From IMG/VR virus record IMGVR_UViG_3300027227_000004: DNA of 64,000 nt; one strand, 5' to 3'. The stretch comes from an uncultured virus (IMG/VR IMGVR_UViG_3300027227_000004) (Duplodnaviria > Heunggongvirae > Uroviricota > Caudoviricetes). Made by a program: the position numbers and the translations under genes. Every line of letters begins with the position of its first letter. Position 1 is the stretch's first letter. Shown here piece after piece: positions 1 through 63,596 of the stretch. A model generated the notes under the pieces. The model saw only the letters and a list, made by a program, of their open reading frames with translations, did no database searches and was not told the DNA's origin.

Positions 1-112
1 ACAATAGCAGAGAAACGGTTGACGAATACGCACTCGACAACCGAATTGGCGTCCTCCGCATTGACACAATTAACGATGTATCGACATGCCACTGGGAGGA
101 TTTGTGATGAGT
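1..112 (+). repeat. Exact 112-bp direct repeat, copy 1 (copy 2 at 62900-63011); 3' end of the 62671-63006 gene
   Basis: Base-by-base identity of 1-112 with 62900-63011; the copies diverge right after TGATGAGT. Confidence 0.95.
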
Positions 113-2968: not shown

Positions 2969-2988
2969 AATTACCTGACCTTTAAGAA
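2969..2988 (+). promoter_or_regulatory. Phage RNAP promoter (SP6/T7-like), predicted +1 G2986
   Basis: AATTACCTGACCTTTAA|GAA, one of 13 copies. Confidence 0.8.
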
Positions 2989-5419: not shown

Positions 5420-6043
5420 ATGCCTGAGAATAGATCAAATACAGGTTCTATGAAATCTAAATTTTCTTATGCAAAAGCTTATGCTAAAGCTCGTGTAGGC
5501 AAGGCAATGACCTCTGCCCAGAAAGTTGCGCTTAAGAAAGCTCAAGAAGCCTCCGCTCGTGCTCGTTCACTTGCTGCTAAAGCTGCTGGCGGTGAAACTA
5601 ATCTTCTTCGTATGAAGCGTACTGCTGCTAATACTGCTTCTTCACTAAGAGCTAGAGCAGGTCTTTCTGCTAATCGCCTAAAGCGTAAGGGATCCTCCGC
5701 AGCTTCTAATGCCGCTCTTAAAGCGAAGCAAACAGTTAATAAGAATCTACAACGTGCTGGTCTTCAATCTACTGGTGCAGGAAAAGGCTCAAGCGGTAGA
5801 GCAAAAGTAATTGGTAGAGCAGGTGCTCCATCAAAGACAGGCCCATCAAAACGTCCAGCTAACATTGGCCCAGCAGGCAATAAGCCTCAATCAACTGGCC
5901 CATCAAAACGTCCACGGGGCAATGGTATGGGTATGCAAGTTAAAAAGCAAGCTGATATTATGTCCCGGCGTGGTGCTTTAAGAGCGACTGCTCTTAGAAC
6001 TGCAAAGAATTACGTCAAAGCAAATCGTAAGAACAAGAAATAA
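5420..6043 (+). CDS. Extremely basic K/R/A/G/S-rich low-complexity protein (nucleic-acid binding candidate)
   Basis: Only 4 acidic residues in 207 aa; TGPSKRP repeated; AAGGA RBS. Confidence 0.75.
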   Translation: MPENRSNTGSMKSKFSYAKAYAKARVGKAMTSAQKVALKKAQEASARARSLAAKAAGGETNLLRMKRTAANTASSLRARAGLSANRLKRKGSSAASNAALKAKQTVNKNLQRAGLQSTGAGKGSSGRAKVIGRAGAPSKTGPSKRPANIGPAGNKPQSTGPSKRPRGNGMGMQVKKQADIMSRRGALRATALRTAKNYVKANRKNKK

Positions 6044-9331: not shown

Positions 9332-9351
9332 TAATAGCTGACCTTAAAGAA
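9332..9351 (+). promoter_or_regulatory. Phage RNAP promoter, +1 G9349, followed by a 5' hairpin
   Basis: TAATAGCTGACCTTAAA|GAAG. Confidence 0.85.
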
Positions 9352-15325: not shown

Positions 15326-16009
15326 ATGTCCAAAAGAAAATCTCGCTACGCTCCTAAAACAAATGTTCATCGTATTGGCTTTCATGTTATCCCTAAAAAT
15401 GAAAAGCAGGATGCTTTAATTAAAGCAATTAAGATGAACCCTATTACTGTTACTATTGGCTGCGCTGGTACGGGCAAGACATATTGTAGTACAGGAACTA
15501 TTGCCCAGTTACATATGCAAGGTAAATACAGAAAAATTGTTATTACTCGTGCAAATGTTCCTACGGGTAAAACACTAGGTCATTTCCCCGGTAGCATTCA
15601 AGAGAAGATGACTCCTTGGCTCTTGCCTATGTTAGAAGTACTAGAAAAAGCGTTTGGTAAAGAAAAATACCAATACATGATGAATAAAGGTGAAATTGAA
15701 ATTCAGCCCATTGAAACTATTCGAGGGCGTTCTTACGAGAATGCGCTTGTACTTGTTGATGAGGCTCAAAACTTGTCTATCGATGAATTAAAGGCAATTA
15801 CAACAAGACTTGGAGAAAACTCTAAGTTAGTATTAATGGGCGACCCTGCACAATCTGATGTCAAAGATGGTAAAGACTTACTAAAGTTTTGTACTGTAGT
15901 GCGTAAAGCAGGTATCCAGCTACCTATTATTGAATTCTCAGTAGATGATATCGTTAGATCAGATATTGTAGCAGATCTGGTTAGAGTATTTATTAAAGAA
16001 AACATCTAA
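15326..16009 (+). CDS. phoH: PhoH-family ATPase
   Basis: GCAGTGKT, LGHFPG, RGRSY, DEAQN, TRLGENSK, GDPAQSD, DIVRS motifs. Confidence 0.95.
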   Translation: MSKRKSRYAPKTNVHRIGFHVIPKNEKQDALIKAIKMNPITVTIGCAGTGKTYCSTGTIAQLHMQGKYRKIVITRANVPTGKTLGHFPGSIQEKMTPWLLPMLEVLEKAFGKEKYQYMMNKGEIEIQPIETIRGRSYENALVLVDEAQNLSIDELKAITTRLGENSKLVLMGDPAQSDVKDGKDLLKFCTVVRKAGIQLPIIEFSVDDIVRSDIVADLVRVFIKENI

Positions 16010-16012
16010 TTA

Positions 16013-16032
16013 CAATACCTGACCTTTAAGAA
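16013..16032 (+). promoter_or_regulatory. Phage RNAP promoter, +1 G16030
   Basis: CAATACCTGACCTTTAA|GAAG. Confidence 0.85.
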
Positions 16033-23523: not shown

Positions 23524-23985
23524 ATGAATAACTTTGGTGAACGTTCCTTAAGAAAACTTGAAGGTGTTCATCCTGATTTGGTAAGGGTTGCTAAAACAGC
23601 TCTTGCCAAATCCTCTGTAGACTTCGGTATTACAGAAGGTGTTAGATCTTTAGAAAAACAGAAGATCTTATACAACACAGGCGCATCTAAAACAATGAAG
23701 TCAAGACATCTTACAGGTCATGCTGTAGATGTTATTGCTTATGTAAATGGCTATACCTACGAGCCTTTTTCTCTCTATGTAAATATTGCAGAGGCCTTTA
23801 GGCTTTCTGCTATCGAACATGATGTAGAAATTTTATGGGGTGCAGCTTGGTTAAAGGCACTTAACTATTATGACTCAGCCGAACTAGCTAAGTCTGCTTA
23901 CGTTAAAGCTCGTTGGGATCAAGGAAAACGCCCCTTTATTGATGGCCCCCATTTCCAACTTACTTGGAAGGATTACCCACAATGA
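23524..23985 (+). CDS. Endolysin, peptidase M15 (L-Ala-D-Glu peptidase-like)
   Basis: EGVRS..KQ, SRHLTGHAVD, DGPHFQ zinc-peptidase motifs. Confidence 0.92.
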   Translation: MNNFGERSLRKLEGVHPDLVRVAKTALAKSSVDFGITEGVRSLEKQKILYNTGASKTMKSRHLTGHAVDVIAYVNGYTYEPFSLYVNIAEAFRLSAIEHDVEILWGAAWLKALNYYDSAELAKSAYVKARWDQGKRPFIDGPHFQLTWKDYPQ

Positions 23986-24278
23986 AGACTTACAAGAGGG
24001 AGCTAGCAATTGCGCTATTTATACCACTATTTTTTACAGTCTGGAAAGGTGATGCTTCAATGGCTGAAGTTCTTGTTTGGCCTACGTTTAGCTTTGCCGC
24101 TCTTGCTTTTGGTCTCGACTGGCATGGTAAGCAGTTGCAGCAAACTCCCTCTGGGGCTTCTCAGCGGAGGAACCAACGTAGCAGCCAATACGCAAATAGG
24201 CAAGACGACGAACCAGAATATCGGGAATACCCAGAATACAGAGCAGAAGATAGTCCGCCCTCAAGCAAGGACCATTAA
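23982..24278 (+). CDS. Putative holin
   Basis: ATGA-coupled to endolysin; two hydrophobic segments plus a charged tail. Confidence 0.6.
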   Translation: MKTYKRELAIALFIPLFFTVWKGDASMAEVLVWPTFSFAALAFGLDWHGKQLQQTPSGASQRRNQRSSQYANRQDDEPEYREYPEYRAEDSPPSSKDH

Positions 24279-24471
24279 TCAATCCTCTGATACTTCTGAG
24301 GTAAAAGCAGATACTGTCGATAGTATTACTGTAAATAATATTCCGCCTTGGTTTATTATATTCTTTATGCTTTGGTCTTTATTTTTATGGGAGTTGCCAA
24401 GGCCAAGTGATATCGGCAGAGGTATAGGTAATTTTTTCCAAAAATACCTGACCTTTAAGAATAAAAGTTAA
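24052..24471 (+). CDS. Putative unimolecular spanin (lipoprotein with C-terminal TM), overlapping the holin
   Basis: Signal LALPLLLLVSTGMVSS-C, polar linker, C-terminal TM WFIIFFMLWSLFLW; start uncertain. Confidence 0.6.
   Translation: MLQWLKFLFGLRLALPLLLLVSTGMVSSCSKLPLGLLSGGTNVAANTQIGKTTNQNIGNTQNTEQKIVRPQARTINQSSDTSEVKADTVDSITVNNIPPWFIIFFMLWSLFLWELPRPSDIGRGIGNFFQKYLTFKNKS
24442..24461 (+). promoter_or_regulatory. Phage RNAP promoter inside the spanin 3' end, +1 G24459
   Basis: AAATACCTGACCTTTAA|GAA. Confidence 0.8.
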
Positions 24472-24582
24472 ATGGAGACAGGCTTAAACTCTCAAGTTTT
24501 CCTGAATGTCTCCCTAGTGAGGGGTGTAGATATTTTGTCTATGACACGGGGTTAGGCTAAAGCCAACCGCTACACCCCTCAT
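24459..24582 (+). ncRNA. Candidate small structured RNA between two phage promoters
   Basis: GGAGACA/TGTCTCC stem 24474-24513; 12-bp stem 24518-24529/24570-24581 closing two inner hairpins. Confidence 0.5.
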
Positions 24583-24595
24583 TTTATTAGAAAAT

Positions 24596-24615
24596 TATTA
24601 CCTGACTTTTAAGAA
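24596..24615 (+). promoter_or_regulatory. Phage RNAP promoter for the head operon, +1 G24613
   Basis: TATTACCTGACTTTTAA|GAAG. Confidence 0.75.
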
Positions 24616-26586: not shown

Positions 26587-29500
26587 ATGGATATTAATGA
26601 CAAAATTTACAGTCGTATTGTCGAGCACATGCTTGATGTTCGTTTATACGAAGAGGGCGTTCAGTTACAAAACCGCCGTATTATGACTCGTCACAAGGAA
26701 AACTTGTTTAAATTATTAAATAAAGATATTCGTGCCGATGTTAAAAAAGAAGCAGTAAGGTTTGCTAGAGAATTAGACTCGCACCTTGTTAGCTCTATCA
26801 AAGAATTTTCTACTTCTCAACTTTCATTTCATGCCGATAATTTCTACAAAGATGTAAAAGGCTTTTATAAGGTTGAAAAACCTAAAACAAAGGAACTACT
26901 TGAAGAAATTATTGGCCCTACGATGAAGGGTGAGAGAACACTAACTAAGAATGTCGTTAATATCTCCTCTGGAGAGTTAGTTAGAATTCAGACTAAAGTT
27001 AAAGCTGGTCTTGCTAATGGCAAGCCACCTAAAGAGATTATTGCTGATGTAATGCGGACAACAAAGCTTACTGAGGCACAGGCATCTACTTTGACTAGAA
27101 CAGCAATTACTAGTACACAGAGTGCGGCTTTAAATAGAGTTGTTCTTGCAAACAAGCCCCTGATTAAGGGTTATTTGTTTAGTGCTATTTTAGACAGTCG
27201 TACAAGTCCTATTTGTTCACATCACAACGGTAAAGTCTATGATGTTGATGATAAGCGGTTTGTTCCTCCTTTACATTGGAATTGCCGTAGTACGCTTATT
27301 CCTGTACTAAAATCAAAGACAGAACTAGCAGAAACAGATGCAAAAGAGATAAACAAAAAGGCGCTTGAAAAAGTAAAGCCAGAGTTACTAACAGGGGTTC
27401 CACCTAAGAGAGAATCCTTTGGTGAGTGGTTAAAAAGACAGACTTTTGATGTTCAGAAGAGTGTGCTTGGTGGTGAAGATAAGGCAAACATGTTTAGGGA
27501 AGGCAAGCTGAAATATGATCAGTTTATCACTCAAACAGGCAAAGCACTTTCTATTCAGGCATTAAGGTCTAAGGCTACACAATTAACTGCCGTGTTCAGA
27601 CCTAGACAGAAGCTTAGAGAAAAAGATACTATTATTAAGGTTTCTAAACCAAGTGTGTTAATTAGAAGCCCCGAGCATAAAGATGCTCTTAGACAGATGA
27701 TTCTTATGGACGCAGATGATTATAACAAAACGTTATCACTTTCTGATTATAAAGGCGTCACTCTTGCTGGTAAGCAGGACTCTAGGCGCAGAACAGGTAA
27801 TGTTTTTGATGAAAGAAACTTTTCAGCAGATCCTCTTACAGGTGAAATTAAAAATAACTTGATCTATGACCCAGACTTTAATTTACTACAAGAACGTATT
27901 GACTTTATGAAGGCCTCTAAACTCATCTCTTCGGAAGAAAAAGAGTTTATTGAGAGTGTTATTAGCGGCCTTGATGACAAGATTTCTGTCAATCAACAAA
28001 CAGTTATGGTTGAGAATTTAAGAGTTGTATTTGAGCGGTATGCTAAGGATAAAACTCCTTGGGAGGACTTTCCGGCTGTTGTTAGGGCTGAAAATAGATT
28101 CGCTGTTCAAAACGTGGCTAGATTACTTGATACAAGATCAAGAAAGAAATCTGAGCTTTTTCTAAGCTACATGAACCTTAAAGACGAAGTCCCTAAAGTA
28201 AATATCATGGGTAAATATTACTCGTTTGATGAGCTTCAAGAGAATCTGTTAAAAGATCAAAGATTTATTGATAACTGGAGAGCCAAGGATGGCGCCAAGC
28301 TAGCAAAGAAACTTTATTTCTCAGGAAGAACTCCGCTTAAAGTATACTTTCAAAGCTATGCTAACAAGTTTCCAACTCAAAAAAAGTTCGTTAAGAACAC
28401 TATGATGAAGTACCCGAGAATCAGTAGGGCTATCGTTGATCAACAAATCAAAGAGGCTCGCTCGATTAGTGACTTTGAGAAGGTAAAAAAGCTTAATGAG
28501 TTCCGAAAGGAGCTTGACAAGGCTACTGGAAATAAGATTATAGATAAAGTATACAATTTTATCTTTGAAGAAAAACCACCAACAGAAGCATTTATTACAA
28601 AGCTACTCAGGCTTGCAAGAGAGCAAGAGCGAAGGATTCTTGATCTAGAGTTCTTTTATGCTAAGAGGGCACCAAGTTCTCTTATCATGGATAATAAGTC
28701 CTTAGATACGATTACAAATGCTATTAAATTAGTTGCTTCGGGGCAGTCTACAGACTACGATTCCCTGGCAATCAATATTGGTAAGCTGTTTAACGATAAC
28801 TTTAAAGATCTATTCCCATTTACGTCTCATACCTTAAAAGACCATCACAAGATTGGGTCCGAGGTATTAGACTTTCTTAAACAAAAGGGTGTCATTAAAG
28901 TTCAATTTAGAGGTAAAGCTCGCAGAGGTGTAATTGATCTAGATACAGGTAGACCGTCTGGAGGTTGGGCAGAAACTATTTCAAGAGAAGTCATTGTTGT
29001 TGATAAACAAATTCTAAAGCTTCAAGAAGCAGAAAGAAGAGTTACAATTGCAAGACGTATTGGAACTGTAGAACCCAGAGATCAGCTTTATGTCAGGCCT
29101 AATGAAAAGGTATTCTTTGATGCTCGTGGTAATAAAACAGGTATTCCTATCATCTCAAGAGATAAGTTTCCTGACTATGATAAAGCTCAGATTGACCGTG
29201 ATATCGCTAATATGTTAAATCATGTTAGTAGCGTAGAGTATGGTGTTGATAACGAATTCTTTGACTTTATGGATGACTTACTCAGATTCAGAGACCCAAG
29301 GGGTAACTCTAAGTATTACGATTCTATCAACGAATTTAGACACGAGATTCTTAACCGTGGTGAACAGGGTTACGGCATGATGGCTACAGCAAAATGGCAT
29401 CGTATTCGGGGTAAAAACTTTAAGACTCAAGTCTTTATGGACTCTCGTGGCCGAGTGTATCACCGAGGTTATCTAACACCTACGGGGGGTGAGCTTGTTC

Positions 29501-31083
29501 GTCCATTTTTAAACTCAGGAAGAGCTATATCAATGTCTATTGACGCTGTAGATGAGCTTAGAGTTCAATTAGGCGCAATGATTGGTCCGGGGACAGAAGC
29601 TTTAACTCAAGCGGGCCGTAGAGAGATCTTTAGAAGAAATGAAAAGGGTCTTTTAGAAATCGGCGAGTTAATGATGGCAACCACTCAAAGAGATCGTAGA
29701 CTCCGTGAATTTCTTGAGCATCCTCTTGTCAAAGGCTTAGAAGGAGCTGAAGTTGCCAAAATGGCAAGGTTAGCCTTAGAATATACTAGGGTATATAAGC
29801 ATGTTAATGGAGATTTTGCAAATCCTCGGTTATTAAGCAGTTATAAAACAAAACTTATGATCGAGAATGACGCATCCTCTTCTGGTGCTCAAATTATTGC
29901 CTTATCAACTGGTGACAGACAAATTGCACAGGTATCCAATGTTGTTGCTACTACTCAAAAGAACAGGCTATATGACCTTGTTGCGATGGATACAGTAAAT
30001 GATCCTGAATTCCTTAAAATTCCATCGCTAAGAGATGCTAACCTAACTTGGGAAGATCTTGCAAAAGCTGCTAAAGCACAAAACATGGTCTCATTTTATG
30101 GTGCGGGTGCTGCTACTAAGACAGCAAATGTCTCTGCAAAATTGTCAAAAGTCCTAAACGAAAAAGGGTTTATTACTATCACTAAAGATCAGCTTGGTGA
30201 GCAACTTCGTATAGTTGACGGGCAAATTAAAGTAGCTGATAAGCTTGGTGCAGATGTTACTAAGTCTTCTCTAGAGGCATTTAGGAAAGAACTTATTGAG
30301 CTTGTTAACTCAGGGCAACCTGTTGGAAGAGAAATTTTGAAAGAAGCCTTGGAAATTCACCCTGATACTGCCTTGTTTGTAGAAAAGCTTACTAACGCAA
30401 GAACAGGGTTTGTAGGTCCGAAAGACTTTTCAGAGATTAATAGAATTATGTCTAAAAATCTCGCCCAAAGAGCACCTGTAACTGATGAGTTTATCACTTA
30501 TTGGAAAAGAGTTGCAAAGATATACGTTAATGAAACTCAGAAATCAGATATTCCATGGGTTACATTTGACGGTAAAGTTATGATGCAGAGGTATAGACCT
30601 CAAATTCAAGAAAGAATTGAGTTTACCGATCCAGTTACTGGTCGTAAAATTGCGAATATCTATGAAGATAGCGCAAAGGATGGTAGACTTATTGGTAAAA
30701 GTTCTCTAAACAGTGCAAGTATTGGTTTAGGAGTTAACGGAAACCATAGTAATGACGCAGTTATTGTTCGTAAGTTTCACTTGTGGGGCTTGAAGAATAA
30801 TGTGCAAACAGGTACAATCCACGACGCTTTTTTCACGAATATCGGAGAAGCTCGCCGTGCCAAAGACGCCCTAAGAACCATCTACGCAGATGCTCTTGAA
30901 GGCGATACAATTCGTAAAACTCTGGCAAAGATGAAAAAAGAAGGTCTTTCTGATAAATCTTACAGAGCATTGCTTGACGAAGCAAAACAATTAGGATTAA
31001 TTGATCCGCCTAATAAACTTACTAGAGCGGACATATTAGCCGACTTTAAAGAAGGAGAGGATTGGTATGGTATCGGTCCTTGA
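26587..31083 (+). CDS. MuF/SPP1 gp7-like head morphogenesis domain fused to a T7-type single-subunit RNA polymerase (candidate virion RNAP)
   Basis: N-term SAILDSRTSPIC...PPLHWNCRS (MuF); C-term DSRGRVY, NDASSSGAQ (motif A), KAQNMVSFYG (motif B), NGNHSNDA, IHDAF (motif C). Confidence 0.9.
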   Translation: MDINDKIYSRIVEHMLDVRLYEEGVQLQNRRIMTRHKENLFKLLNKDIRADVKKEAVRFARELDSHLVSSIKEFSTSQLSFHADNFYKDVKGFYKVEKPKTKELLEEIIGPTMKGERTLTKNVVNISSGELVRIQTKVKAGLANGKPPKEIIADVMRTTKLTEAQASTLTRTAITSTQSAALNRVVLANKPLIKGYLFSAILDSRTSPICSHHNGKVYDVDDKRFVPPLHWNCRSTLIPVLKSKTELAETDAKEINKKALEKVKPELLTGVPPKRESFGEWLKRQTFDVQKSVLGGEDKANMFREGKLKYDQFITQTGKALSIQALRSKATQLTAVFRPRQKLREKDTIIKVSKPSVLIRSPEHKDALRQMILMDADDYNKTLSLSDYKGVTLAGKQDSRRRTGNVFDERNFSADPLTGEIKNNLIYDPDFNLLQERIDFMKASKLISSEEKEFIESVISGLDDKISVNQQTVMVENLRVVFERYAKDKTPWEDFPAVVRAENRFAVQNVARLLDTRSRKKSELFLSYMNLKDEVPKVNIMGKYYSFDELQENLLKDQRFIDNWRAKDGAKLAKKLYFSGRTPLKVYFQSYANKFPTQKKFVKNTMMKYPRISRAIVDQQIKEARSISDFEKVKKLNEFRKELDKATGNKIIDKVYNFIFEEKPPTEAFITKLLRLAREQERRILDLEFFYAKRAPSSLIMDNKSLDTITNAIKLVASGQSTDYDSLAINIGKLFNDNFKDLFPFTSHTLKDHHKIGSEVLDFLKQKGVIKVQFRGKARRGVIDLDTGRPSGGWAETISREVIVVDKQILKLQEAERRVTIARRIGTVEPRDQLYVRPNEKVFFDARGNKTGIPIISRDKFPDYDKAQIDRDIANMLNHVSSVEYGVDNEFFDFMDDLLRFRDPRGNSKYYDSINEFRHEILNRGEQGYGMMATAKWHRIRGKNFKTQVFMDSRGRVYHRGYLTPTGGELVRPFLNSGRAISMSIDAVDELRVQLGAMIGPGTEALTQAGRREIFRRNEKGLLEIGELMMATTQRDRRLREFLEHPLVKGLEGAEVAKMARLALEYTRVYKHVNGDFANPRLLSSYKTKLMIENDASSSGAQIIALSTGDRQIAQVSNVVATTQKNRLYDLVAMDTVNDPEFLKIPSLRDANLTWEDLAKAAKAQNMVSFYGAGAATKTANVSAKLSKVLNEKGFITITKDQLGEQLRIVDGQIKVADKLGADVTKSSLEAFRKELIELVNSGQPVGREILKEALEIHPDTALFVEKLTNARTGFVGPKDFSEINRIMSKNLAQRAPVTDEFITYWKRVAKIYVNETQKSDIPWVTFDGKVMMQRYRPQIQERIEFTDPVTGRKIANIYEDSAKDGRLIGKSSLNSASIGLGVNGNHSNDAVIVRKFHLWGLKNNVQTGTIHDAFFTNIGEARRAKDALRTIYADALEGDTIRKTLAKMKKEGLSDKSYRALLDEAKQLGLIDPPNKLTRADILADFKEGEDWYGIGP

Positions 31084-34330: not shown

Positions 34331-34861
34331 ATGGCACATATTTCAAGCCTTCAGGCAGGTGTCTATTCCTACCTAGACATTTACACTGGTGCAACTGACA
34401 CTGCAGCTTTTGACGAGCTAAACGAGTGGGCAACTGTATTTAACGCTGGTTCAACCACTGGTGTTGTACGTATGCCTTCAGTTCGTGAATTCCCTTCAGT
34501 TGGTACTCCTGCAAACATCGTAAACGTTCCTGTTTACGGCCAAGCAACTTCTTCACAGATTCAGGGTCAGGCAGATGCGCCTTCACTCGAAATTACTGTG
34601 AACTACGTTGCTGCAGACATGCAGGCAATTCACGCTCTCATCGGTAAGCAGGTCGCTTTCCGCTTTATGATGGCAGCTGCTCCACTAACACTAGCACAGT
34701 CTTGCGCTGCAACTATTGCTGCTGAAAACACTGAATTCTTCTTCAACGGTAAAGTTGAAGCTATTCTTGTTAACCCACAGCTAACAGATGCAACCACTGC
34801 GACCGTTACTCTTTCTGCTCAGTCAGACTTCTTCGGTCCATTCACAACTGCTGCACCCTAA
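34331..34861 (+). CDS. Major tail tube protein
   Basis: FPSVG...VNVP.YG...QIQGQADAP; high-expression codon bias; precedes chaperones. Confidence 0.8.
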   Translation: MAHISSLQAGVYSYLDIYTGATDTAAFDELNEWATVFNAGSTTGVVRMPSVREFPSVGTPANIVNVPVYGQATSSQIQGQADAPSLEITVNYVAADMQAIHALIGKQVAFRFMMAAAPLTLAQSCAATIAAENTEFFFNGKVEAILVNPQLTDATTATVTLSAQSDFFGPFTTAAP

Positions 34862-34878
34862 TAGCTGACGTTAAAGAA
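34859..34878 (+). promoter_or_regulatory. Phage RNAP promoter, +1 G34876, followed by a hairpin
   Basis: TAATAGCTGACGTTAAA|GAAG. Confidence 0.85.
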
Positions 34879-41399: not shown

Positions 41400-41427
41400 G
41401 GTCATCCCTTTGGGGATGGCCTTTTTT
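41400..41427 (+). terminator. Intrinsic terminator ending the late region
   Basis: GGTCATCCC TTTG GGGATGGCC TTTTTT. Confidence 0.85.
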
Positions 41428-41472
41428 ATTAAATGAGTCTAGAATTAGACGGGCTTTGTGGCTATAAAAAAG

Positions 41473-41497
41473 TGAGAAAATTATAGCATCTATAATG
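41473..41497 (+). promoter_or_regulatory. Early-island promoter-like motif, copy 1
   Basis: TGAGAAAA-N5-GCATCTATAATG, repeated with the same spacing at 43624. Confidence 0.65.
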
Positions 41498-41540
41498 ATA
41501 CAATAAAGTATCACAGGCAAAAAGCTTAAAGGAAAATCCA

Positions 41541-41648
41541 ATGAGAGCAAAGCCAAAAAAGAAGAAAGCAAAAAGCAATCTTAACAGCTTTGCTTGGACT
41601 TTCTTTTCTGTAACAATGCTAATAGGAGTTATCACTCAGCTTGGGTGA
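41541..41648 (+). CDS. 35-aa basic membrane peptide (not in ORF track)
   Basis: AAGGA RBS; MRAKPKKKK...FAWTFFSVTMLIGVI. Confidence 0.5.
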   Translation: MRAKPKKKKAKSNLNSFAWTFFSVTMLIGVITQLG

Positions 41649-41674
41649 TAACCTTAATCACAAAGGGAAATAAA

Positions 41675-41752
41675 ATGGAACTGGAACTCGTAGTTTCAAT
41701 CGGCCTCGGTATGTTGTTGATTATTGCTATGTTTCAACGTCTGTCTAACTAA
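41675..41752 (+). CDS. 25-aa membrane peptide (not in ORF track)
   Basis: AAGGGA RBS; MELELVVSIGLGMLLIIAMFQRLSN. Confidence 0.5.
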   Translation: MELELVVSIGLGMLLIIAMFQRLSN

Positions 41753-41769
41753 CTTCCAAGGAGGATAAA

Positions 41770-41967
41770 ATGGAAGTATTTCTCATTGCAGTAGTAGCTG
41801 GTTGCCTGATGGGTGTTGTAGTAATGTGGTCTTCGCCTTGCTCAGATGGTTACAAGGTAGGGGCGAGAGCGATCTTGCATCCGAAAATTTTCCTGAACTC
41901 TACAGTGCCCGCTATGATTATTTGCTCTACGTTCGCAATCATAATTGGCATTCTAGGCTTCTTGTAA
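41770..41967 (+). CDS. Small membrane protein (2 TM)
   Basis: AGGAGG RBS. Confidence 0.7.
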   Translation: MEVFLIAVVAGCLMGVVVMWSSPCSDGYKVGARAILHPKIFLNSTVPAMIICSTFAIIIGILGFL

Positions 41968-41972
41968 TACTA

Positions 41973-42002
41973 ACAGGCTGGCATCCTGTATAAAAACTGC
42001 CA
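41973..42002 (+). promoter_or_regulatory. Compact H-type RNA pseudoknot motif, copy 2
   Basis: ACAGG-CTGGCAT-CCTGT-ATAAAAA-CTGCCA. Confidence 0.6.
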
Positions 42003-42041
42003 AAACAATTAAACGGGCTTTGTCATCTACAGGAGATAACT

Positions 42042-42368
42042 ATGACAAACACTGTGATTGCACGTCTGTTTCGTGGCTGCAAAACTTACCTTGAGGCCCA
42101 ATCTCTCGGTGAGGGGTATCAACACAAAGCTATTACTTTCTGGACTGATAGCCTTGAGAAAGCAGGCATGTATGGTAACTATGTAATTGAGTTTGAATTT
42201 GACGAGTTGCCTCCCCACTTTGACAAGCGGAAAAGTATCGCAGAAGGAAACGAGATTCATGGTAACATTCGTGAATGGAGAATTCCTTCCGAGTACTTTG
42301 AGAAGGATGGTGGAATGTACTGTTACGCTGAGTCTGCAAAGATTCATATAAAAGGTGTAGATTTCTAG
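42042..42368 (+). CDS. Hypothetical protein, possible ADP-ribosyltransferase-like fold
   Basis: AGGAG RBS; LFRG ... FWTDS...A..YG ... REW spacing resembles R-S-E ART motifs. Confidence 0.45.
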   Translation: MTNTVIARLFRGCKTYLEAQSLGEGYQHKAITFWTDSLEKAGMYGNYVIEFEFDELPPHFDKRKSIAEGNEIHGNIREWRIPSEYFEKDGGMYCYAESAKIHIKGVDF

Positions 42369-42431
42369 CATATTCGTAAATAGCCTCTACCTCTTAGGGA
42401 GTAGAGGTCAAATCCCTCAGAGGAGACTAGA

Positions 42432-42758
42432 ATGGAAGTTTTGACAATGATACTTGCTGGCTTTGTTGCTAGAGGTTTTCTTATAGCAGTATCAGAAAAG
42501 TTACTTGGGGTTAAGCTAATAAAAATACCCCCTCTACTTGGTGTAGTAGCTATTGCACACTATGTCGTATTTGCACCTGCTTATGCTGGGTTTTCTTTCG
42601 TAAACATGTTTACTGTATTCGGGTTATTTCTACCTGAAGTAATCCGCTCTCTAAACTTAATCTTCAAGGACAAGGAGACTAGCAATGTCCGTAATAACTC
42701 CCACAATTCTTTGTCTAGCGACCGCAGTGTTTTTCGAGGCACGAGCAGAACCTCTTGA
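42432..42758 (+). CDS. Membrane protein
   Basis: AGGAG RBS; about three hydrophobic segments. Confidence 0.65.
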   Translation: MEVLTMILAGFVARGFLIAVSEKLLGVKLIKIPPLLGVVAIAHYVVFAPAYAGFSFVNMFTVFGLFLPEVIRSLNLIFKDKETSNVRNNSHNSLSSDRSVFRGTSRTS

Positions 42759-43092
42759 TGGTCAAATGTTTGTAGCTGAGACTATTATGAATCGAGTAGA
42801 AGACTCTCGTTATCCAAATAATGTTTGTGATGTTGTGTACGAGAAAAAAGCCTTCTCCTTCACCCATGATGGTAAGAGTGATAATATGTTTAAATATGAT
42901 ACATATTATGATCAGGAGGCGCAAGCAATTGCTATTTCTATAGCGTATAAGGCTTACTATCGTGGTTCTCCAATTACTACAGCAACACACTACCATGCTG
43001 TAGGTGTAAAGCCTTTCTGGCGTAAGTATTACGATAAAGAAGGTCGTATCGGTAATCATGTGTTTTACACTAACAACACTCCTCATAAGTGA
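42685..43092 (+). CDS. Cell wall hydrolase, SleB/Hydrolase_2 family
   Basis: CLA.AVFFEAR.E...V...IMNRV...YPN.VC.VV ... ATHYH ... IGNHVFY. Confidence 0.92.
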   Translation: MSVITPTILCLATAVFFEARAEPLDGQMFVAETIMNRVEDSRYPNNVCDVVYEKKAFSFTHDGKSDNMFKYDTYYDQEAQAIAISIAYKAYYRGSPITTATHYHAVGVKPFWRKYYDKEGRIGNHVFYTNNTPHK

Positions 43093-43099
43093 GAAGATC

Positions 43100-43315
43100 A
43101 TGGAAAAAGTAAACTGGGAAGTAACCCGTAAATCGATGGTGTCAGGAATTACTCGAACAATGACGTTTAAAGTAAATCCTGAAGATGTAAAGAAGTACGC
43201 AGACGGAGGTTTGATTCAGAATGCTTTTCCATATCTCTCAGGAGATGATCGAGAATTTATCATGACAGGCATCACTGCTGAGGAATGGGATGAAACTTTT
43301 GGAGAAGAAGTATGA
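43100..43315 (+). CDS. Phage hypothetical protein
   Basis: LIQNAFPYLS.DDREFIMTGIT.EEW motif. Confidence 0.75.
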   Translation: MEKVNWEVTRKSMVSGITRTMTFKVNPEDVKKYADGGLIQNAFPYLSGDDREFIMTGITAEEWDETFGEEV

Positions 43316-43620
43316 GATATCTTGCTGACGTGCAAAAGAATTTATCCTGCAGCTGGATCTTTGATGACACTATCTTCGGAGAAGTGTTAGCAGAGTTTGA
43401 AGCAGTTGCAGAAAAGTGTGATTATGGGTACTCTCGTAGTCCGATATGGTGGGAGATAGACGAAGGCTCTATTAGTTTTGTTGGTATGAGTATCTACCAC
43501 GAAACTTGGGATTATAATGATCTTGTGGATCTATTCGGAAAATCGGTAGCAATTAATATCATTCAAAACATGATTGAACAGCTTCCTAATGATCTTGACT
43601 ACTGGACTGAAGACGAGTAA
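43312..43620 (+). CDS. Acidic hypothetical protein
   Basis: Coupled ORF, GGAG RBS. Confidence 0.65.
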   Translation: MRYLADVQKNLSCSWIFDDTIFGEVLAEFEAVAEKCDYGYSRSPIWWEIDEGSISFVGMSIYHETWDYNDLVDLFGKSVAINIIQNMIEQLPNDLDYWTEDE

Positions 43621-43623
43621 TTC

Positions 43624-43648
43624 TGAGAAAAACAACGCATCTATAATG
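43624..43648 (+). promoter_or_regulatory. Early-island promoter-like motif, copy 2
   Basis: TGAGAAAA-N5-GCATCTATAATG. Confidence 0.65.
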
Positions 43649-43668
43649 CTACCATGAAAGGACAGCGG

Positions 43669-43842
43669 ATGACTAAAATCAAACTTGAAGATTTGGCTTT
43701 CAGCAAACTTGTTCAGGCAATTGACAAGAAGTGGTCACACACTTACATTGATGTGCCTGACCAACCGGAACTAACTGACGAGATGCGAGACGAACTTGAT
43801 GAGATCGCTCGTGCTGAATGTGACTTCGATCCCCAATACTGA
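43669..43842 (+). CDS. Small acidic hypothetical protein
   Basis: AAGGA RBS. Confidence 0.6.
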   Translation: MTKIKLEDLAFSKLVQAIDKKWSHTYIDVPDQPELTDEMRDELDEIARAECDFDPQY

Positions 43843-43865
43843 AACGCATAAATAGGAGAACTGAC

Positions 43866-44258
43866 ATGCGTAATTCTTACTTCTTCGGCACTATGTTTAA
43901 CTGTGGCAACTACAACGACAACTTCCGCCGCAAAGTTGCCTTGCTTGCGGTAGAAACCGCTGATATTCCATTTGTTGCCGAAACAATTGGAGTGAGCAAG
44001 GGTTCAGTATATCGTTGGCTCAAGGCCTACGACTTGTTTAAACAGTATGCAGCTAAGAAACATAACTTAGCTCAATATCCGCAGGCCTCCTTTATTCGTA
44101 AATCGGAGTACGACAATAACTTCCGTCAAACAGTTGTTCAGTACGCCATGCGGACAAATACTATCAAGGCTGCTGACCGTTATGCAGTAAGTGTTGGTTC
44201 AGTTGATAACTGGATCAAAGCGTTTCAAGGTAATACAACTTACCTTAATCGTGGCTAA
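43866..44258 (+). CDS. Tandem helix-turn-helix DNA-binding protein
   Basis: Two repeats: YNDNFR..V...A..IGVS.GSVYRWLKAY and YDNNFR..V...A..YAVS.GSVDNWIKAF. Confidence 0.8.
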   Translation: MRNSYFFGTMFNCGNYNDNFRRKVALLAVETADIPFVAETIGVSKGSVYRWLKAYDLFKQYAAKKHNLAQYPQASFIRKSEYDNNFRQTVVQYAMRTNTIKAADRYAVSVGSVDNWIKAFQGNTTYLNRG

Positions 44259-44276
44259 TAGCTGACCTTAAAGAAC
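44256..44276 (+). promoter_or_regulatory. Phage RNAP promoter, +1 G44273
   Basis: TAATAGCTGACCTTAAA|GAAC. Confidence 0.85.
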
Positions 44277-44280
44277 AATT

Positions 44281-44346
44281 GCCCTTCGGGGCCGCTCCTC
44301 ATCCCCTTAGGGGGGTGGGGGGCTTTAAAAAAACTTTTTTTTTTTT
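44281..44346 (+). terminator. UUCG hairpin plus 13-bp G-U-rich hairpin and T-run
   Basis: GCCC-TTCG-GGGC; 44294-44306 pairs with 44311-44323; 12 T at 44335-44346. Confidence 0.75.
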
Positions 44347-44511
44347 CTTCAACAACACAGGAGCCTAATTGCTAACTGTAGTGCTAATCTATTTTATATA
44401 TTACACGGTTAAAGAGCTGCTAAAGGATTAGTGCTGAATTTACTAACAAAGTTTCAAAAGTATAGGGTACTAACTATGTACAATGCCTATAGAAAGTAAA
44501 GAAAGTTAAAA

Positions 44512-46674
44512 ATGACAGTACTAGACAAGCTAGTAGAAGACTTGACATACCGTATAAATACTCTTGATAATCGCAATCGGGCAAGTTATATTAAGGCTAT
44601 GCCAGCCAAAGATATTATTGAGTTTTCGTACACTCATGTACTAAAAGGATTAGAAAGGAAAGCATCACTAGTAGAGGTATCAACAAGTATTGGTCGTCGG
44701 TTACGACAGAAAATGAGACTTGAACAAGACAGTATTCTTGAGGCTCAGGGTGGATGGTTCGTTTTAATCTCTTATATCGAAGTAGGTATACTCGGCTATA
44801 AGAAGAAACACATGTATAAGAACGGTAAGAAAGACAAACACAGATCTTACAGTTTGTTTGCATCAGACTGGAAAGCTATTAAGGAGCTAATGGATCTTGT
44901 TGACAATGAAAAGTGTGACATGTTTCCAGTCAACACTCCACCAAAATCGTGGGACGGATCTGCTTATCATCAAACCACAGGTATTAGTGTAATTAAGAAA
45001 GGCCACTCATTAGCCTTAAATTACTTTGAAGCTAATGATATGAGTTATATTCTCAAAGTTCTAAACAAGCTAACTTCAACAGCTTGGCGTATTAACGAGC
45101 CTGTGTTTAATGTGTTCAAACAATGTTTACGGTCAAAAGAGAACCCTTTCAAGTTTACGAAGGAAATTGATCCAATTAAACGGGCTTCGTTGATTATTGA
45201 AGTTGAAGCAATTGAAAGACTAGCGGAGAAGAATCTCGGGCTACCGTTCTATCACCTCTACAACTTGGATTTCCGTGGTCGAATCTACCCTAACACAGCC
45301 TTTTTGCACGAGCAGTCAAGCGACAATGCTAAGGGATTGCTCTTACTCGATGAGCCTGTTAGGCTTGGAGAAACTGGCCTCTACTGGTTATCCGTTCATA
45401 CTGCAAACTCGTGGGGTAATGACAAGGTTTCTCTTGACGACCGTGCTCAATGGGTTCAAGATAACTTAGACGACATCCTGATTTATGCAAGCGATCCTAT
45501 GCGTTATACAGGCTGGATGAGTGCGGATAAACCGTTTACTTTCCTTGCCTGTTGTATGGAATTTTCTATGCTCTCTCACTGGCATGGTCAGGGTATGGAA
45601 ACAGAAGACTTCCCTAGTTGTTTGCCAGTTTACATCGACGGTTCTAACAATGGTGTTCAGCACCTAGTTGCTATGTCTCAAGATGAAGAGGTAGCTCCTC
45701 TTGTTAACCTAGTTCCACAAGAACTTCCCGGTGATGTTTACATGTTCATTGCTAACAAAGTCTGGAGAAGACTTCGAAGTATGCAAGACAAGTTACCTAA
45801 CGGGCTTGTTGAAAGCTTTGACACGGTATTTGACGAGGCTAGACGGCTTCAACGAGAGTATGATGCAGCTTCTGACAAGTCAGAACGCAAGACAATTGCC
45901 TTTCGAGAGGCTCAATCTTGGCGTAATGAGAATCGCAATCTTAGAGAGAAACTCTTTCCTGTATACTGGAATCGAATCACTGACAAGAAAATTCGACGAA
46001 AGACAGTTAAGCGTAACGTTATGACTCTTGGTTACGGTGGCACGGCTTATGGTATGGGTCAACAAGTTATTGAGGATACACGAGAACTCTCTGAATATCT
46101 TCGAGATAAAGAACACTTGTGGGGAGCTATGCTGGGCACTTTAGTATACAAGACTTGTTACGAAGAACTTAAAGGACCAGCTACTTTACTGAGCATGTTC
46201 CAAAAGTTAGCTGAACGGGCTAATGACGACAAGCTTCATTTAAAATGGCAATCCCCAATCACTAACTTCCCCGTAGTACAAGCTTACCTAAAGCCAATTA
46301 CAAAGCGAACAGAGCTTAAATACGGCGATGACATTTTAAAAGTCAATATCCAAGTGTGGGAAGAAGCTGTAATTAATGAGTCTAAACAGCGAACTGGTGC
46401 AGCACCTAACATTGTTCATAGCTTAGATGCTGTTCATTTGACAAGTGTTGTTCACGATTCTAATTATCTTGTTACTGTTGTTCACGACTCTTTTGGTTGT
46501 CATGCAGGTAACATGGAAGATATGTTTATGCTTGTTCGTGAGAAGTTTGTTGAGCTTTATGAGGCTCAACCGCTTGAGAACATTTTAACACAACTTAACT
46601 CAAAAGATCTTATCCTAGAGAAAGGTACACTAGATGTCCGACAAGTCTTATACTCCGATTTTGCATTCGCTTAA
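44512..46674 (+). CDS. T7-type single-subunit DNA-dependent RNA polymerase
   Basis: DFRGRIY, DGSNNGVQH (A), RKTVKRNVMTLGYG (B), PNIVHSLDA, VHDSFG (C). Confidence 0.97.
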   Translation: MTVLDKLVEDLTYRINTLDNRNRASYIKAMPAKDIIEFSYTHVLKGLERKASLVEVSTSIGRRLRQKMRLEQDSILEAQGGWFVLISYIEVGILGYKKKHMYKNGKKDKHRSYSLFASDWKAIKELMDLVDNEKCDMFPVNTPPKSWDGSAYHQTTGISVIKKGHSLALNYFEANDMSYILKVLNKLTSTAWRINEPVFNVFKQCLRSKENPFKFTKEIDPIKRASLIIEVEAIERLAEKNLGLPFYHLYNLDFRGRIYPNTAFLHEQSSDNAKGLLLLDEPVRLGETGLYWLSVHTANSWGNDKVSLDDRAQWVQDNLDDILIYASDPMRYTGWMSADKPFTFLACCMEFSMLSHWHGQGMETEDFPSCLPVYIDGSNNGVQHLVAMSQDEEVAPLVNLVPQELPGDVYMFIANKVWRRLRSMQDKLPNGLVESFDTVFDEARRLQREYDAASDKSERKTIAFREAQSWRNENRNLREKLFPVYWNRITDKKIRRKTVKRNVMTLGYGGTAYGMGQQVIEDTRELSEYLRDKEHLWGAMLGTLVYKTCYEELKGPATLLSMFQKLAERANDDKLHLKWQSPITNFPVVQAYLKPITKRTELKYGDDILKVNIQVWEEAVINESKQRTGAAPNIVHSLDAVHLTSVVHDSNYLVTVVHDSFGCHAGNMEDMFMLVREKFVELYEAQPLENILTQLNSKDLILEKGTLDVRQVLYSDFAFA

Positions 46675-47011: not shown

Positions 47012-47032
47012 AATTACCCGACCTTAAAGAAC
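47012..47032 (+). promoter_or_regulatory. Phage RNAP promoter, +1 G47029
   Basis: AATTACCCGACCTTAAA|GAAC. Confidence 0.8.
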
Positions 47033-50145: not shown

Positions 50146-50166
50146 CGATATCTGACCTTAAAGAAC
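50146..50166 (+). promoter_or_regulatory. Phage RNAP promoter, +1 G50163
   Basis: CGATATCTGACCTTAAA|GAAC. Confidence 0.75.
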
Positions 50167-61946: not shown

Positions 61947-62023
61947 GGTTCCTTAGCTCAATTGGATAGAGCAACTGCCTTCTAAGCAGTAGGTTACAGG
62001 TTCGAGTCCTGTAGGGACCACCA
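61947..62023 (+). tRNA. tRNA-Arg (anticodon TCT), CCA encoded
   Basis: Acceptor GGTTCCT/AGGGACC, D-arm GCTC/GAGC, anticodon ACTGC-CTTCTAA-GCAGT, T-arm ACAGG-TTCGAGT-CCTGT. Confidence 0.97.
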
Positions 62024-62050: not shown

Positions 62051-62413
62051 ATGGCGTATTGGGGTTATCATGCAATGTTCGATTGTGCAAATTGTGACAT
62101 TGAGAAAATTACGAGTAAAGAAAACGTATATAATTTTATTAAGGAACTTGTTCCTGCAATTGACATGATTTCGTTTGGAGAGCCTATGATTGAGCACTTT
62201 GCTACTCATGCCCCAGATAAAGCAGGTATTAGTTTTATACAAATGATCGAGACATCAAATATTTCAGGTCATCTTGTAGATTCTAATGGTGATGGCTACT
62301 TTGATATTTTCTCATGCAAACCGGTAGATATTGGAATTGCTCAGGAAATGATACAAAAGTATTTTAATCCGAAGAAAGTCCGTGTGAACTTTATTACACG
62401 TTCTGCTGGTTAA
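62051..62413 (+). CDS. speD: S-adenosylmethionine decarboxylase proenzyme
   Basis: GYH..FD, IETSNISGH (pyruvoyl Ser region), DIFSCK. Confidence 0.88.
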   Translation: MAYWGYHAMFDCANCDIEKITSKENVYNFIKELVPAIDMISFGEPMIEHFATHAPDKAGISFIQMIETSNISGHLVDSNGDGYFDIFSCKPVDIGIAQEMIQKYFNPKKVRVNFITRSAG

Positions 62414-62671: not shown

Positions 62672-63006
62672 TGACATTTGACCCAACACAAAACCGTAGT
62701 CCGGTAAAGCTCCTATCGTCAGAGGAATTTCAAACCCTTAAGGATTGGCCTCACGGGCATCAACTATGGTCTTTCGAAGAGGTATGGGTAGACGTGCCTC
62801 TACCAAAGTGGATTACTTCATGTATCTACCGTGGCAAGCCTGCTTCAGCCGTGGTGAGCAAGTGGTTCAATCTTTACCCGTGTGGACCGGGAGATGCCCA
62901 CAATAGCAGAGAAACGGTTGACGAATACGCACTCGACAACCGAATTGGCGTCCTCCGCATTGACACAATTAACGATGTATCGACATGCCACTGGGAGGAT
63001 TTGTGA
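62671..63006 (+). CDS. Hypothetical protein
   Basis: TAATG-coupled; its 3' end is the repeat at the window start. Confidence 0.7.
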   Translation: MTFDPTQNRSPVKLLSSEEFQTLKDWPHGHQLWSFEEVWVDVPLPKWITSCIYRGKPASAVVSKWFNLYPCGPGDAHNSRETVDEYALDNRIGVLRIDTINDVSTCHWEDL

Positions 63007-63011
63007 TGAGT
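62900..63011 (+). repeat. Exact 112-bp direct repeat, copy 2
   Basis: Identical to 1-112. Confidence 0.95.
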
Positions 63012-63130: not shown

Positions 63131-63310
63131 ATGTATGATATGCAAGGTAAAGAACATTTCGAGGACTGGTTCTATCAGACACGGAACGAGGAAAGGCCAG
63201 TAATTCACTTCGATAAGTTGGTGAGTGAGTATCATTCATCCATTGAACGGTGGCTAAGTTGGGCCTATGTAGCAGGCTACAAAAAGGGATTGGAGAGTAA
63301 AGATGAGTGA
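63131..63310 (+). CDS. Hypothetical protein
   Basis: ORF track; start uncertain. Confidence 0.55.
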   Translation: MYDMQGKEHFEDWFYQTRNEERPVIHFDKLVSEYHSSIERWLSWAYVAGYKKGLESKDE

Positions 63311-63596
63311 CTACAAACAAACTCGAGACGCAGCAGGTATCATCACCTCTCGCTTCTCTAACATGCTGAAGAACCTACAGGACGACTACGAGGAAGAGAT
63401 TGTTGTCGTATCTCTGATGGGATATTACGAGATGTGCGCTAAGCCAGACAAGATCGATAATACCGTAGGTGAATACATTGACCCTGATGAAGACCTGCTC
63501 TGGGCTATTGAACGAGTACTTCAAGACTACATGTCCTCTAGAGATTTCAACGATTGGTTGATGACAAGATACGGGGGGAAGCGTGATGGAAAGTGA
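63303..63596 (+). CDS. Hypothetical protein, paralog of 456-740
   Basis: First 30 aa identical to the 456 ORF. Confidence 0.8.
   Translation: MSDYKQTRDAAGIITSRFSNMLKNLQDDYEEEIVVVSLMGYYEMCAKPDKIDNTVGEYIDPDEDLLWAIERVLQDYMSSRDFNDWLMTRYGGKRDGK

Follow-up and report, generated by a model that had tools for sequence, protein, structure and literature searches.

What would a long-tailed phage do with two single-subunit RNA polymerases? The question is raised by the gene at 44512..46674 (+ strand) of a 64,000-nucleotide stretch of DNA from an uncultured virus, hereafter the window. An earlier note, made from the letters alone, read this gene as a free T7-type RNA polymerase (RNAP) in a siphovirus genome that also encodes a divergent RNAP fused to a MuF protein, and proposed a cascade in which the virion MuF-RNAP transcribes an early island and the free RNAP gene, after which the free enzyme reads 13 CTGAC-type promoters. 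From the observed folds, co-occurrence, motifs and co-variation, we consider a two-step relay probable (about 0.7), with the MuF-RNAP as a virion enzyme acting first and the free RNAP second.

Two T7-type polymerases in one siphovirus genome

The window is a near-complete genome of a long-tailed aquatic siphovirus with every recognised gene on the + strand. Terminase, portal, MuF, scaffold, capsid, tail and tape-measure genes are followed by a short island of small genes, and 3' of this early island lie genes for the RNAP, SSB, family-A DNA polymerase, exonuclease, primase-helicase and class II RNR, so that the intact 720-aa RNAP gene heads the replication block, as the earlier note had it. 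The podovirus head-tail module that accompanies gene 1 in Autographiviridae is absent, and tape measure, distal tail, tail terminator and J-like genes are present instead. Among 50,697 phage records, DSS3_VP1 and DSS3_PM1 were the only close matches to both polymerases (57% identity for the free RNAP and 59% for the MuF fusion, both full length). The taxon label in their record is Naomviridae, Noahvirus, and the window shares with DSS3_VP1 the Naomiviridae core genes and their order (terL, portal, MuF, capsid, RNAP, polA and primase, ~48-70%), a placement by shared genes and order rather than by a formal network or proteome tree. Further relatives came from 29 IMG/VR contigs, taken whole or nearly whole and picked for length and divergence among 65 searched. 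Bacterial genomes scanned with the free RNAP yielded a single close match, which lies on a MAG contig of 14 kb; 16 others were distant and T7-like.

Several features of the genome were recorded alongside. An exact 112-base end repeat (window 1-112 and 62900-63011) is followed by a duplicate gene region (455-710 and 63302-63557, 89% identical), for which terminal redundancy or joined strain variants are candidate readings. Two overlapping ORFs 3' of the endolysin (23964-24471), the second with a lipoprotein-like signal, are probably holin and spanin parts, and a 207-aa strongly basic, low-complexity protein after terL (5420-6043), which has no family match, is possibly DNA-condensing. There are also a tRNA-Arg(TCT) at 61947-62023, an S-adenosylmethionine decarboxylase-like gene (62051-62413) and a PhoH gene (15326-16009). 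An Rfam scan matched a tRNA and nothing else.

The free RNAP matches Pfam RNA_pol (E 8e-81) and T7 RNAP in the PDB (E 4e-59). The aspartate pair of motifs A and C (D376/D659), motif B residues R496/K500/Y508/G509, H658 and R255/R257/Y259 are invariant in 93/93 aligned relatives (93 of 120 homologs among the matches listed, plus the query) and line up with T7 catalytic residues in the sequence alignment. An AlphaFold model (pLDDT 90) predicts the right-hand fold, with TM 0.77 to 1cez; model residues 1-720 align to T7 75-883 (Z 34.8, rmsd 4.0, 652 aligned), and the T7 specificity loop and C-terminal foot are retained. The loop (aa 593-621; 46288..46374, +) is modelled as a beta-hairpin and co-varies with the class II promoters described below. 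The protein is shorter than T7 RNAP, which the earlier note had observed, because T7 residues 1-74 have no counterpart; shorter internal gaps relative to T7, such as that at T7 154-204, come from the sequence alignment and are less certain. Identity is 28.8% to T7, 26.1% to SP6, 27.6% to Xp10, 20.9% to the joined N4 RNAPII and 15.5% to the MuF-fused domain. Taken alone, the free RNAP adds one member to a family already known and annotated, DSS3_VP1/PM1 included. Its cofactor-free, promoter-specific RNA synthesis is predicted from sequence, on the basis of co-variation with class II sites, and it is a candidate non-virion enzyme for middle and late transcription.

The other polymerase is encoded at 26587..31083 (+), between the portal and scaffold/major capsid genes, as a 1498-aa protein in which a MuF domain (Phage_Mu_F, aa 134-238) precedes a T7-fold RNAP part (~aa 545-1497), making it a candidate virion RNAP. 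The RNAP part matches the Pfam RNA polymerase family at E 1.3e-6. A single-sequence PDB search with the fusion did not detect the polymerase part, and a family profile of 38 rows did, matching T7 RNAP at E 1.5e-12 and N4 RNAP2 at 1e-4. A model of aa 401-1498 (pLDDT 84) compares to T7 RNAP at Z 26-31, with model residues 147-1097 aligning to 1cez at Z 25.7. Both window enzymes are thus modelled as nearer to T7 than to the N4 mini-vRNAP, at Z 26-31 vs 17 for the MuF-RNAP and 35-43 vs 21 for the free enzyme. When the last 798 aa of the fusion were compared with 1.84 billion representatives, 137 matches were obtained, many of them ~1500 aa long.

The catalytic aspartate pair, lysine and Tyr-Gly of the MuF-RNAP (D1095, K1163, Y1171, G1172 and D1413) are kept in 11/11 rows, down to ~25% identity. 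The motif B arginine is not: the equivalent of T7 R627 is Arg in 2/11 rows and Ala in the window, which counts against the relay. If the MuF C-terminal domain were a non-transcribing polymerase fold, acting as a DNA anchor or ejection aid and leaving the 720-aa protein as sole RNAP, this mostly missing arginine, the 15% identity to other T7-type enzymes and a different C-terminal foot would all make sense, but the retention of the catalytic aspartates and of motif B Lys/Tyr/Gly in every row makes this the least probable of the readings that we weighed. MuF proteins have been described as head components and as fused to delivered enzymes (PMC5512222), and the MuF domain and gene position suggest that the MuF-RNAP may be present in virions.

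The claim of two divergent RNAPs in one siphovirus genome held: both have T7 folds, they share 15.5% identity over 620 columns, and BLASTP of one against the other gave no significant match (E 0.08). The phylogeny that the earlier note had proposed was obtained in part. In a quick tree of 29 rows, in which long branches were flagged and the N4 vRNAP was left out, the free-RNAP family joins the RNAP of the Pelagibacter siphovirus Kolga EXVC016S (SH-aLRT 100) and the MuF enzymes occupy their own long branch; the two window enzymes are far apart. Recent duplication of one RNAP into two is accordingly disfavoured, subject to the same flagged branches. Insertions, probably introns, break the polymerase genes of some relatives (the free RNAP in L046-L050 and L058-L060; the MuF gene in L106, L107, L138 and L144), and in EBPR siphovirus 1 the MuF-RNAP gene contains an HNH gene.

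The two polymerases occur together. Among 14 records that were reached via the free RNAP and span portal to capsid gene, 13 contain the MuF fusion (G006, G008, G011, G014, G019, G025, DSS3_VP1, G041, G042, G043, G046, G047 and G052), with Kolga the sole exception. The fusion is present in 4/4 further complete genomes. In the other direction, the free gene is present in both IMG/VR contigs reached via the fusion that span tape measure to SSB (G031 and G040). In the partial record of EBPR siphovirus 1 the fusion is present and the free RNAP unmatched.

Two promoter-like classes at distinct locations

The 13 CTGAC-type repeats of the earlier note were recovered exactly: a matrix built without the window found 13 + strand sites of at least 17 bits. 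The - strand has no site above 10 bits, and 20 Markov simulations gave a mean of 1.3 sites above that level. These class II sites, all on the + strand, lie before the terminase genes (2969..2988), in the tail-fibre module (9332..9351), before the distal-tail genes (16013..16032), twice before the portal and MuF-RNAP genes (24442 and 24596, together 24442..24615), in the 3' end of the MuF-RNAP gene before the scaffold and capsid genes (31034..31053), after the major tail gene (34859..34878), directly before a terminator-like element upstream of the free RNAP gene (44256..44275), before SSB (47012..47031), and at 50146 (DNA polymerase), 57140 (RNR), 59061 and 61106. The sites thus lie ahead of the replication genes as well as of terminase, portal/MuF-RNAP, capsid and tail genes, and the early island (41495-44258) has no class II site before 44256.

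The class II plan is T7/SP6-like and 17 bp long. Site 44256 agrees with annotated T7 late promoters at bases -17 to -13 and at the initial G, and a class II site of G021 differs at 3/21 bases from an SP6 repeat, which we take to be the SP6 promoter. At homologous places, before the portal and before SSB, the flanks are constant and bases -12 to -5 change between lineages. T7-like RNAPs read this -12 to -5 zone with the specificity loop (PMC11880802). De novo motif searches, swamped by coding repeats, yielded no class II motif in G047-G050, G057, Kolga or EBPR. Separately, base -3 differs between the sites on the terminase/portal side (2969, 16013, 24442 and 24596) and those at replication genes (47012, 50146, 57140, 59061 and 61106), a split also seen in G011, G018 and G027 that may mark middle and late sub-classes.

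A further motif, absent from the earlier note, marks the early island. This class I motif is 28 bases long and has two copies in the window, both on the + strand: one at 41467..41494, with a predicted +1 at 41495 and a short hairpin following, and one at 43618..43645, with a predicted +1 at 43646, before a 62-aa ORF and the HTH gene. A terminator-like hairpin (41400..41431, +) ends the tail/HNH unit just before the island, which itself (41495..44258, +) consists of small ORFs, a SleB-type cell-wall hydrolase gene (42685-43092) and a gene for a tandem-HTH protein (43866-44258). The last of these is kept before the RNAP gene in several relatives, and its product is a candidate regulator of the switch. 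Bases -5 to -1 are common to class I and T7 promoters. Trained on 12 records, the class I matrix matches 24/33, including 12/21 untrained, never on the - strand and almost always between the tape-measure and RNAP genes. Nine records are unmatched: three end before or at the island edge, G042 has a variant, and no match was found in Kolga, EBPR, G047, G049 or G050. Two groups of records count against the relay, namely G047, G049 and EBPR siphovirus 1, in which the fusion is present and class I unmatched, and G048 and G057, in which class I is matched and no fusion was detected, although portal and capsid genes are not seen in either record.

A hairpin starts at +1 or +2 in 22/39 distinct class I starts, and its mean energy of -3.1 kcal/mol compares with -0.6 in shuffles, of which 0/200 were as low. 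An N4-type DNA hairpin promoter was rejected for class I in favour of a 5' RNA hairpin, because many copies have no hairpin and, where there is one, it lies 3' of the conserved bases. Two promoter-like classes at distinct locations, as in virion-RNAP systems, are present as motifs rather than as mapped starts.

Most class I copies also contain a perfect sigma-70 -10 hexamer, which counts against the relay and brings in a T7/Xp10-like scheme. Here class I and the RNAP gene would be read by host sigma-70 RNAP, alone or helped by a phage activator, and class II by the 720-aa enzyme; the MuF-RNAP would be left to other work, such as pulling DNA in, priming replication or making a few pre-early RNAs. 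The consensus hexamer and the A-tracts in class I fit this scheme, as do the deviation of the MuF-RNAP at motif B and the example of Kolga, which has a free RNAP alone and a short 633-aa MuF. Against it, the class I sites have no -35 match, a sigma-70 scan of the window listed neither of them (14 sites in total vs 14.3 by chance), and a sigma-70 start would cut the hairpin that begins at the T7-style +1 or +2. Together with the co-variation of class I with the MuF-RNAP reported next, these points lead us to regard a host-initiated scheme as unlikely, though it is the most serious competitor to the relay.

Co-variation and the proposed hand-over region

Each enzyme was matched to a motif by partial Mantel tests of promoter against protein distances, an approach that follows published co-variation of the T7 loop with promoter bases (PMC11880802). 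Two sets were used, 18 genomes with both enzymes and motifs and 8 lineage representatives, with one hand-picked site per genome and 11 tests per set; the lineages are few and related. In the 8 lineages, class II varied with the free loop given the MuF loop (partial rho 0.62, p 0.005) and not with the MuF loop given the free loop (-0.11, p 0.69). Class I varied with the MuF-RNAP given the free RNAP (0.88, p 0.003) and even given the capsid protein (0.93, p 0.001), the latter being the result that speaks against host initiation, and its partial correlation with the free RNAP was -0.25 (p 0.85). The 18-genome set repeats this pattern, with cross terms of 0.25 (p 0.04) for class II against the whole MuF-RNAP and 0.38 (p 0.02) for class I against the free loop. 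These cross terms, the hand-picked sites and the number of tests count against the relay. So does the weak value for class I against the MuF loop alone, 0.41 (p 0.08) in the 8 lineages, and about two shifts carry the class I signal.

Individual genomes illustrate how the enzymes and motifs move. In G042 and G055 the capsid protein is 71-76% like that of the window, but the MuF-RNAP has diverged (48-51%) and the class I motif has changed; the polymerase domain and its promoters were possibly exchanged as a unit. The MuF loop of G032 is near the window's, but the class II motif of that genome is different. At aa 612 of the free RNAP and at class II base -6, the window departs from its ~8 closest relatives; this change is one event, and no simple code accommodates G052. 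For the free loop, a one-residue-one-base code was rejected because it gave no clean reading and had exceptions. Taken together, the co-variation offers good indirect support, at the level of sequence comparison, for assigning the free RNAP to class II and the MuF-RNAP to class I. Because each of the two enzymes changes together with one promoter type, it is probable that the phage carries one RNAP into the cell and makes the other for replication and assembly.

The cascade of the earlier note is supported by comparison as far as the promoters go, in that the 13-copy motif tracks the free RNAP and the early-island motif tracks the MuF-RNAP. Its statement that the virion enzyme transcribes the free RNAP gene itself is made uncertain by an intrinsic-terminator-like hairpin with a 12-T run (44281..44346, +; MFE -25.6) between the HTH and RNAP genes. 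The element was scored by script, and the terminator scan did not list it. Such an element precedes the RNAP gene in 15/28 records; the 13 without it include G021/G023 and the G041 group. In T7 the order is the reverse, with TE 3' of gene 1, a difference that counts against the relay. Because a terminator-like element intervenes, expression of the RNAP gene needs read-through or an unseen promoter.

The class II site just before this terminator is peculiar to the window: among records with a defined class II motif, the other 22 lack it (at least 4 mismatches). It could give positive feedback or a short RNA. Its place just upstream of the free RNAP gene, and the specificity loop found in both enzymes, are what one would cite for swapped or shared roles, with the MuF-RNAP reading class II (alone or with the free enzyme), the free enzyme reading class I, or both reading both. 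However, the co-variation runs in the opposite direction in both data sets and the upstream site is missing in those 22 records, so such an arrangement is highly improbable.

Downstream of the terminator-like element, an unannotated ORF for a hydrophobic 20-aa peptide (44369..44431, +) has a TTG start and an SD, and inspection by eye showed similar small ORFs in close relatives. A bulged RNA hairpin with compensatory changes (44462..44490, +) lies just 5' of the RNAP ribosome-binding site and is a candidate translational operator with no Rfam match. In 18 sequences picked by eye out of 30 rows (loci L011-L058, upstream of RNAP), both sides change at 9/9 pairs, and 90.7% of cells are paired vs 71.3% in shuffles. 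The simplest reading of the hand-over would be metered read-through plus translational control.

A proposed relay and its relation to known systems

In the relay that we favour, MuF-RNAP made late would be loaded into the head via its MuF domain, as MuF biology suggests, and enter the next cell with the DNA. Judging from co-variation, it would start at class I promoters and transcribe the early island. Partial read-through of the 44281-44346 terminator would then yield limited mRNA for the 720-aa RNAP, with translation probably tuned further by the bulged hairpin. That enzyme would read the 13 class II promoters through its T7-like specificity loop and, given the co-variation and the site positions, transcribe the replication and virion genes, the MuF-RNAP gene included, closing the cycle. 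A wider proposal, which we put forward tentatively and at slightly less than even odds, is that aquatic siphoviruses of this group, 60-80 kb in size, carry the lytic programme through from start to end without host RNAP. They would use two single-subunit enzymes only, the MuF-delivered one at extended early promoters and the compact 720-aa one, without the first 74 residues of T7 RNAP, for middle as well as late genes, with terminator and hairpin metering the hand-over.

If the relay is true, MuF at the head would be a third route for an RNAP into the cell, beside the N4 giant protein and the P23-45 tape-measure fusion, MuF proteins would have a direct role in the start of infection, and the programme may be the smallest host-independent one for phage transcription. 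The phage group of the window is reported as abundant in seawater (PMC12669031), and its cultured members infect Ruegeria pomeroyi. For studies of promoter recognition, the lineage is also a useful source of compact T7-type RNAP/promoter pairs that differ naturally in specificity.

Since jumbo phages with dU DNA have two RNAPs (PMC7598289), dU was considered as a reason for a virion RNAP. DSS3_VP1/PM1 have dU DNA, in the making of which VP1_066 and VP1_050 act; these genes have been named (PMC8323127) and their enzymes assayed (PMC12697855). The pattern of Thy genes fits, with ThyX in 0/32 records, ThyA in 1/32 (Kolga) and no match to either in the window. However, homologs of VP1_050 and VP1_066 are few (2 and 7 of the 32 other records, respectively) and none was detected in the window, leaving the idea unsupported; the two-RNAP design is therefore wider than the known dU genes.

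The closest comparison is with the Ruegeria phages DSS3_VP1 and DSS3_PM1, which have orthologs of the free RNAP and MuF fusion, the same gene order and both promoter classes. Their records name gp56 as RNA polymerase and gp28, the fusion, as 'minor head protein-like', and a text search for RNA polymerase in the main text of the Naomiviridae family paper gave no match (PMC8323127). The free RNAP of Kolga EXVC016S is a sister of the window's (30%), and the portal, MuF and capsid genes of this phage are related too, but its MuF ends at 633 aa without an RNAP part, and it has ThyA and no class I or II match. In the literature covered, which included few subscription papers, we found no MuF-fused T7-type RNAP and no such pair; an Endozoicomonas phage is described as having two RNA polymerases of unstated type that are expressed late (bioRxiv 10.1101/2025.10.29.685362).

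The T7 and SP6 gene 1 RNAPs (Autographiviridae) and the Xp10 RNAP share with the free enzyme of the window the fold, catalytic motifs, loop, foot and 17-bp promoter plan. They are 26-29% identical to the free enzyme, which lacks T7 residues 1-74 and forms its own clade with Kolga in the quick tree, and their phages encode a single RNAP and rely on host RNAP at the start. The Thermus siphovirus P23-45 resembles the window in having an RNAP on a structural protein, a second free RNAP and two promoter motifs; it differs in that its enzymes are of the two-barrel type, a tape-measure-fused vRNAP (gp96) and a non-virion gp64, and its late genes use host RNAP (PMC10770324). Coliphage N4 (Schitoviridae), like the proposed relay, uses a virion RNAP and then a second phage T7-type RNAP. 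Its vRNAP gp50 is a 3500-aa protein that reads hairpin promoters, its RNAPII is a gp15/gp16 heterodimer with cofactors, and host RNAP serves late (PMC4496689), whereas the window has a single 720-aa chain and a 1498-aa fusion with MuF as carrier, and no heterodimeric RNAPII or giant vRNAP. The resemblance to N4 drawn by the earlier note is thus one of logic and not of build, because the N4 RNAPII is heterodimeric and N4 late genes use host RNAP, while in the window class II sites also lie before virion genes. We see the two polymerases and their two promoter classes as a new construction of the scheme, already described for N4 and P23-45, in which a virion RNAP hands over to a non-virion one.
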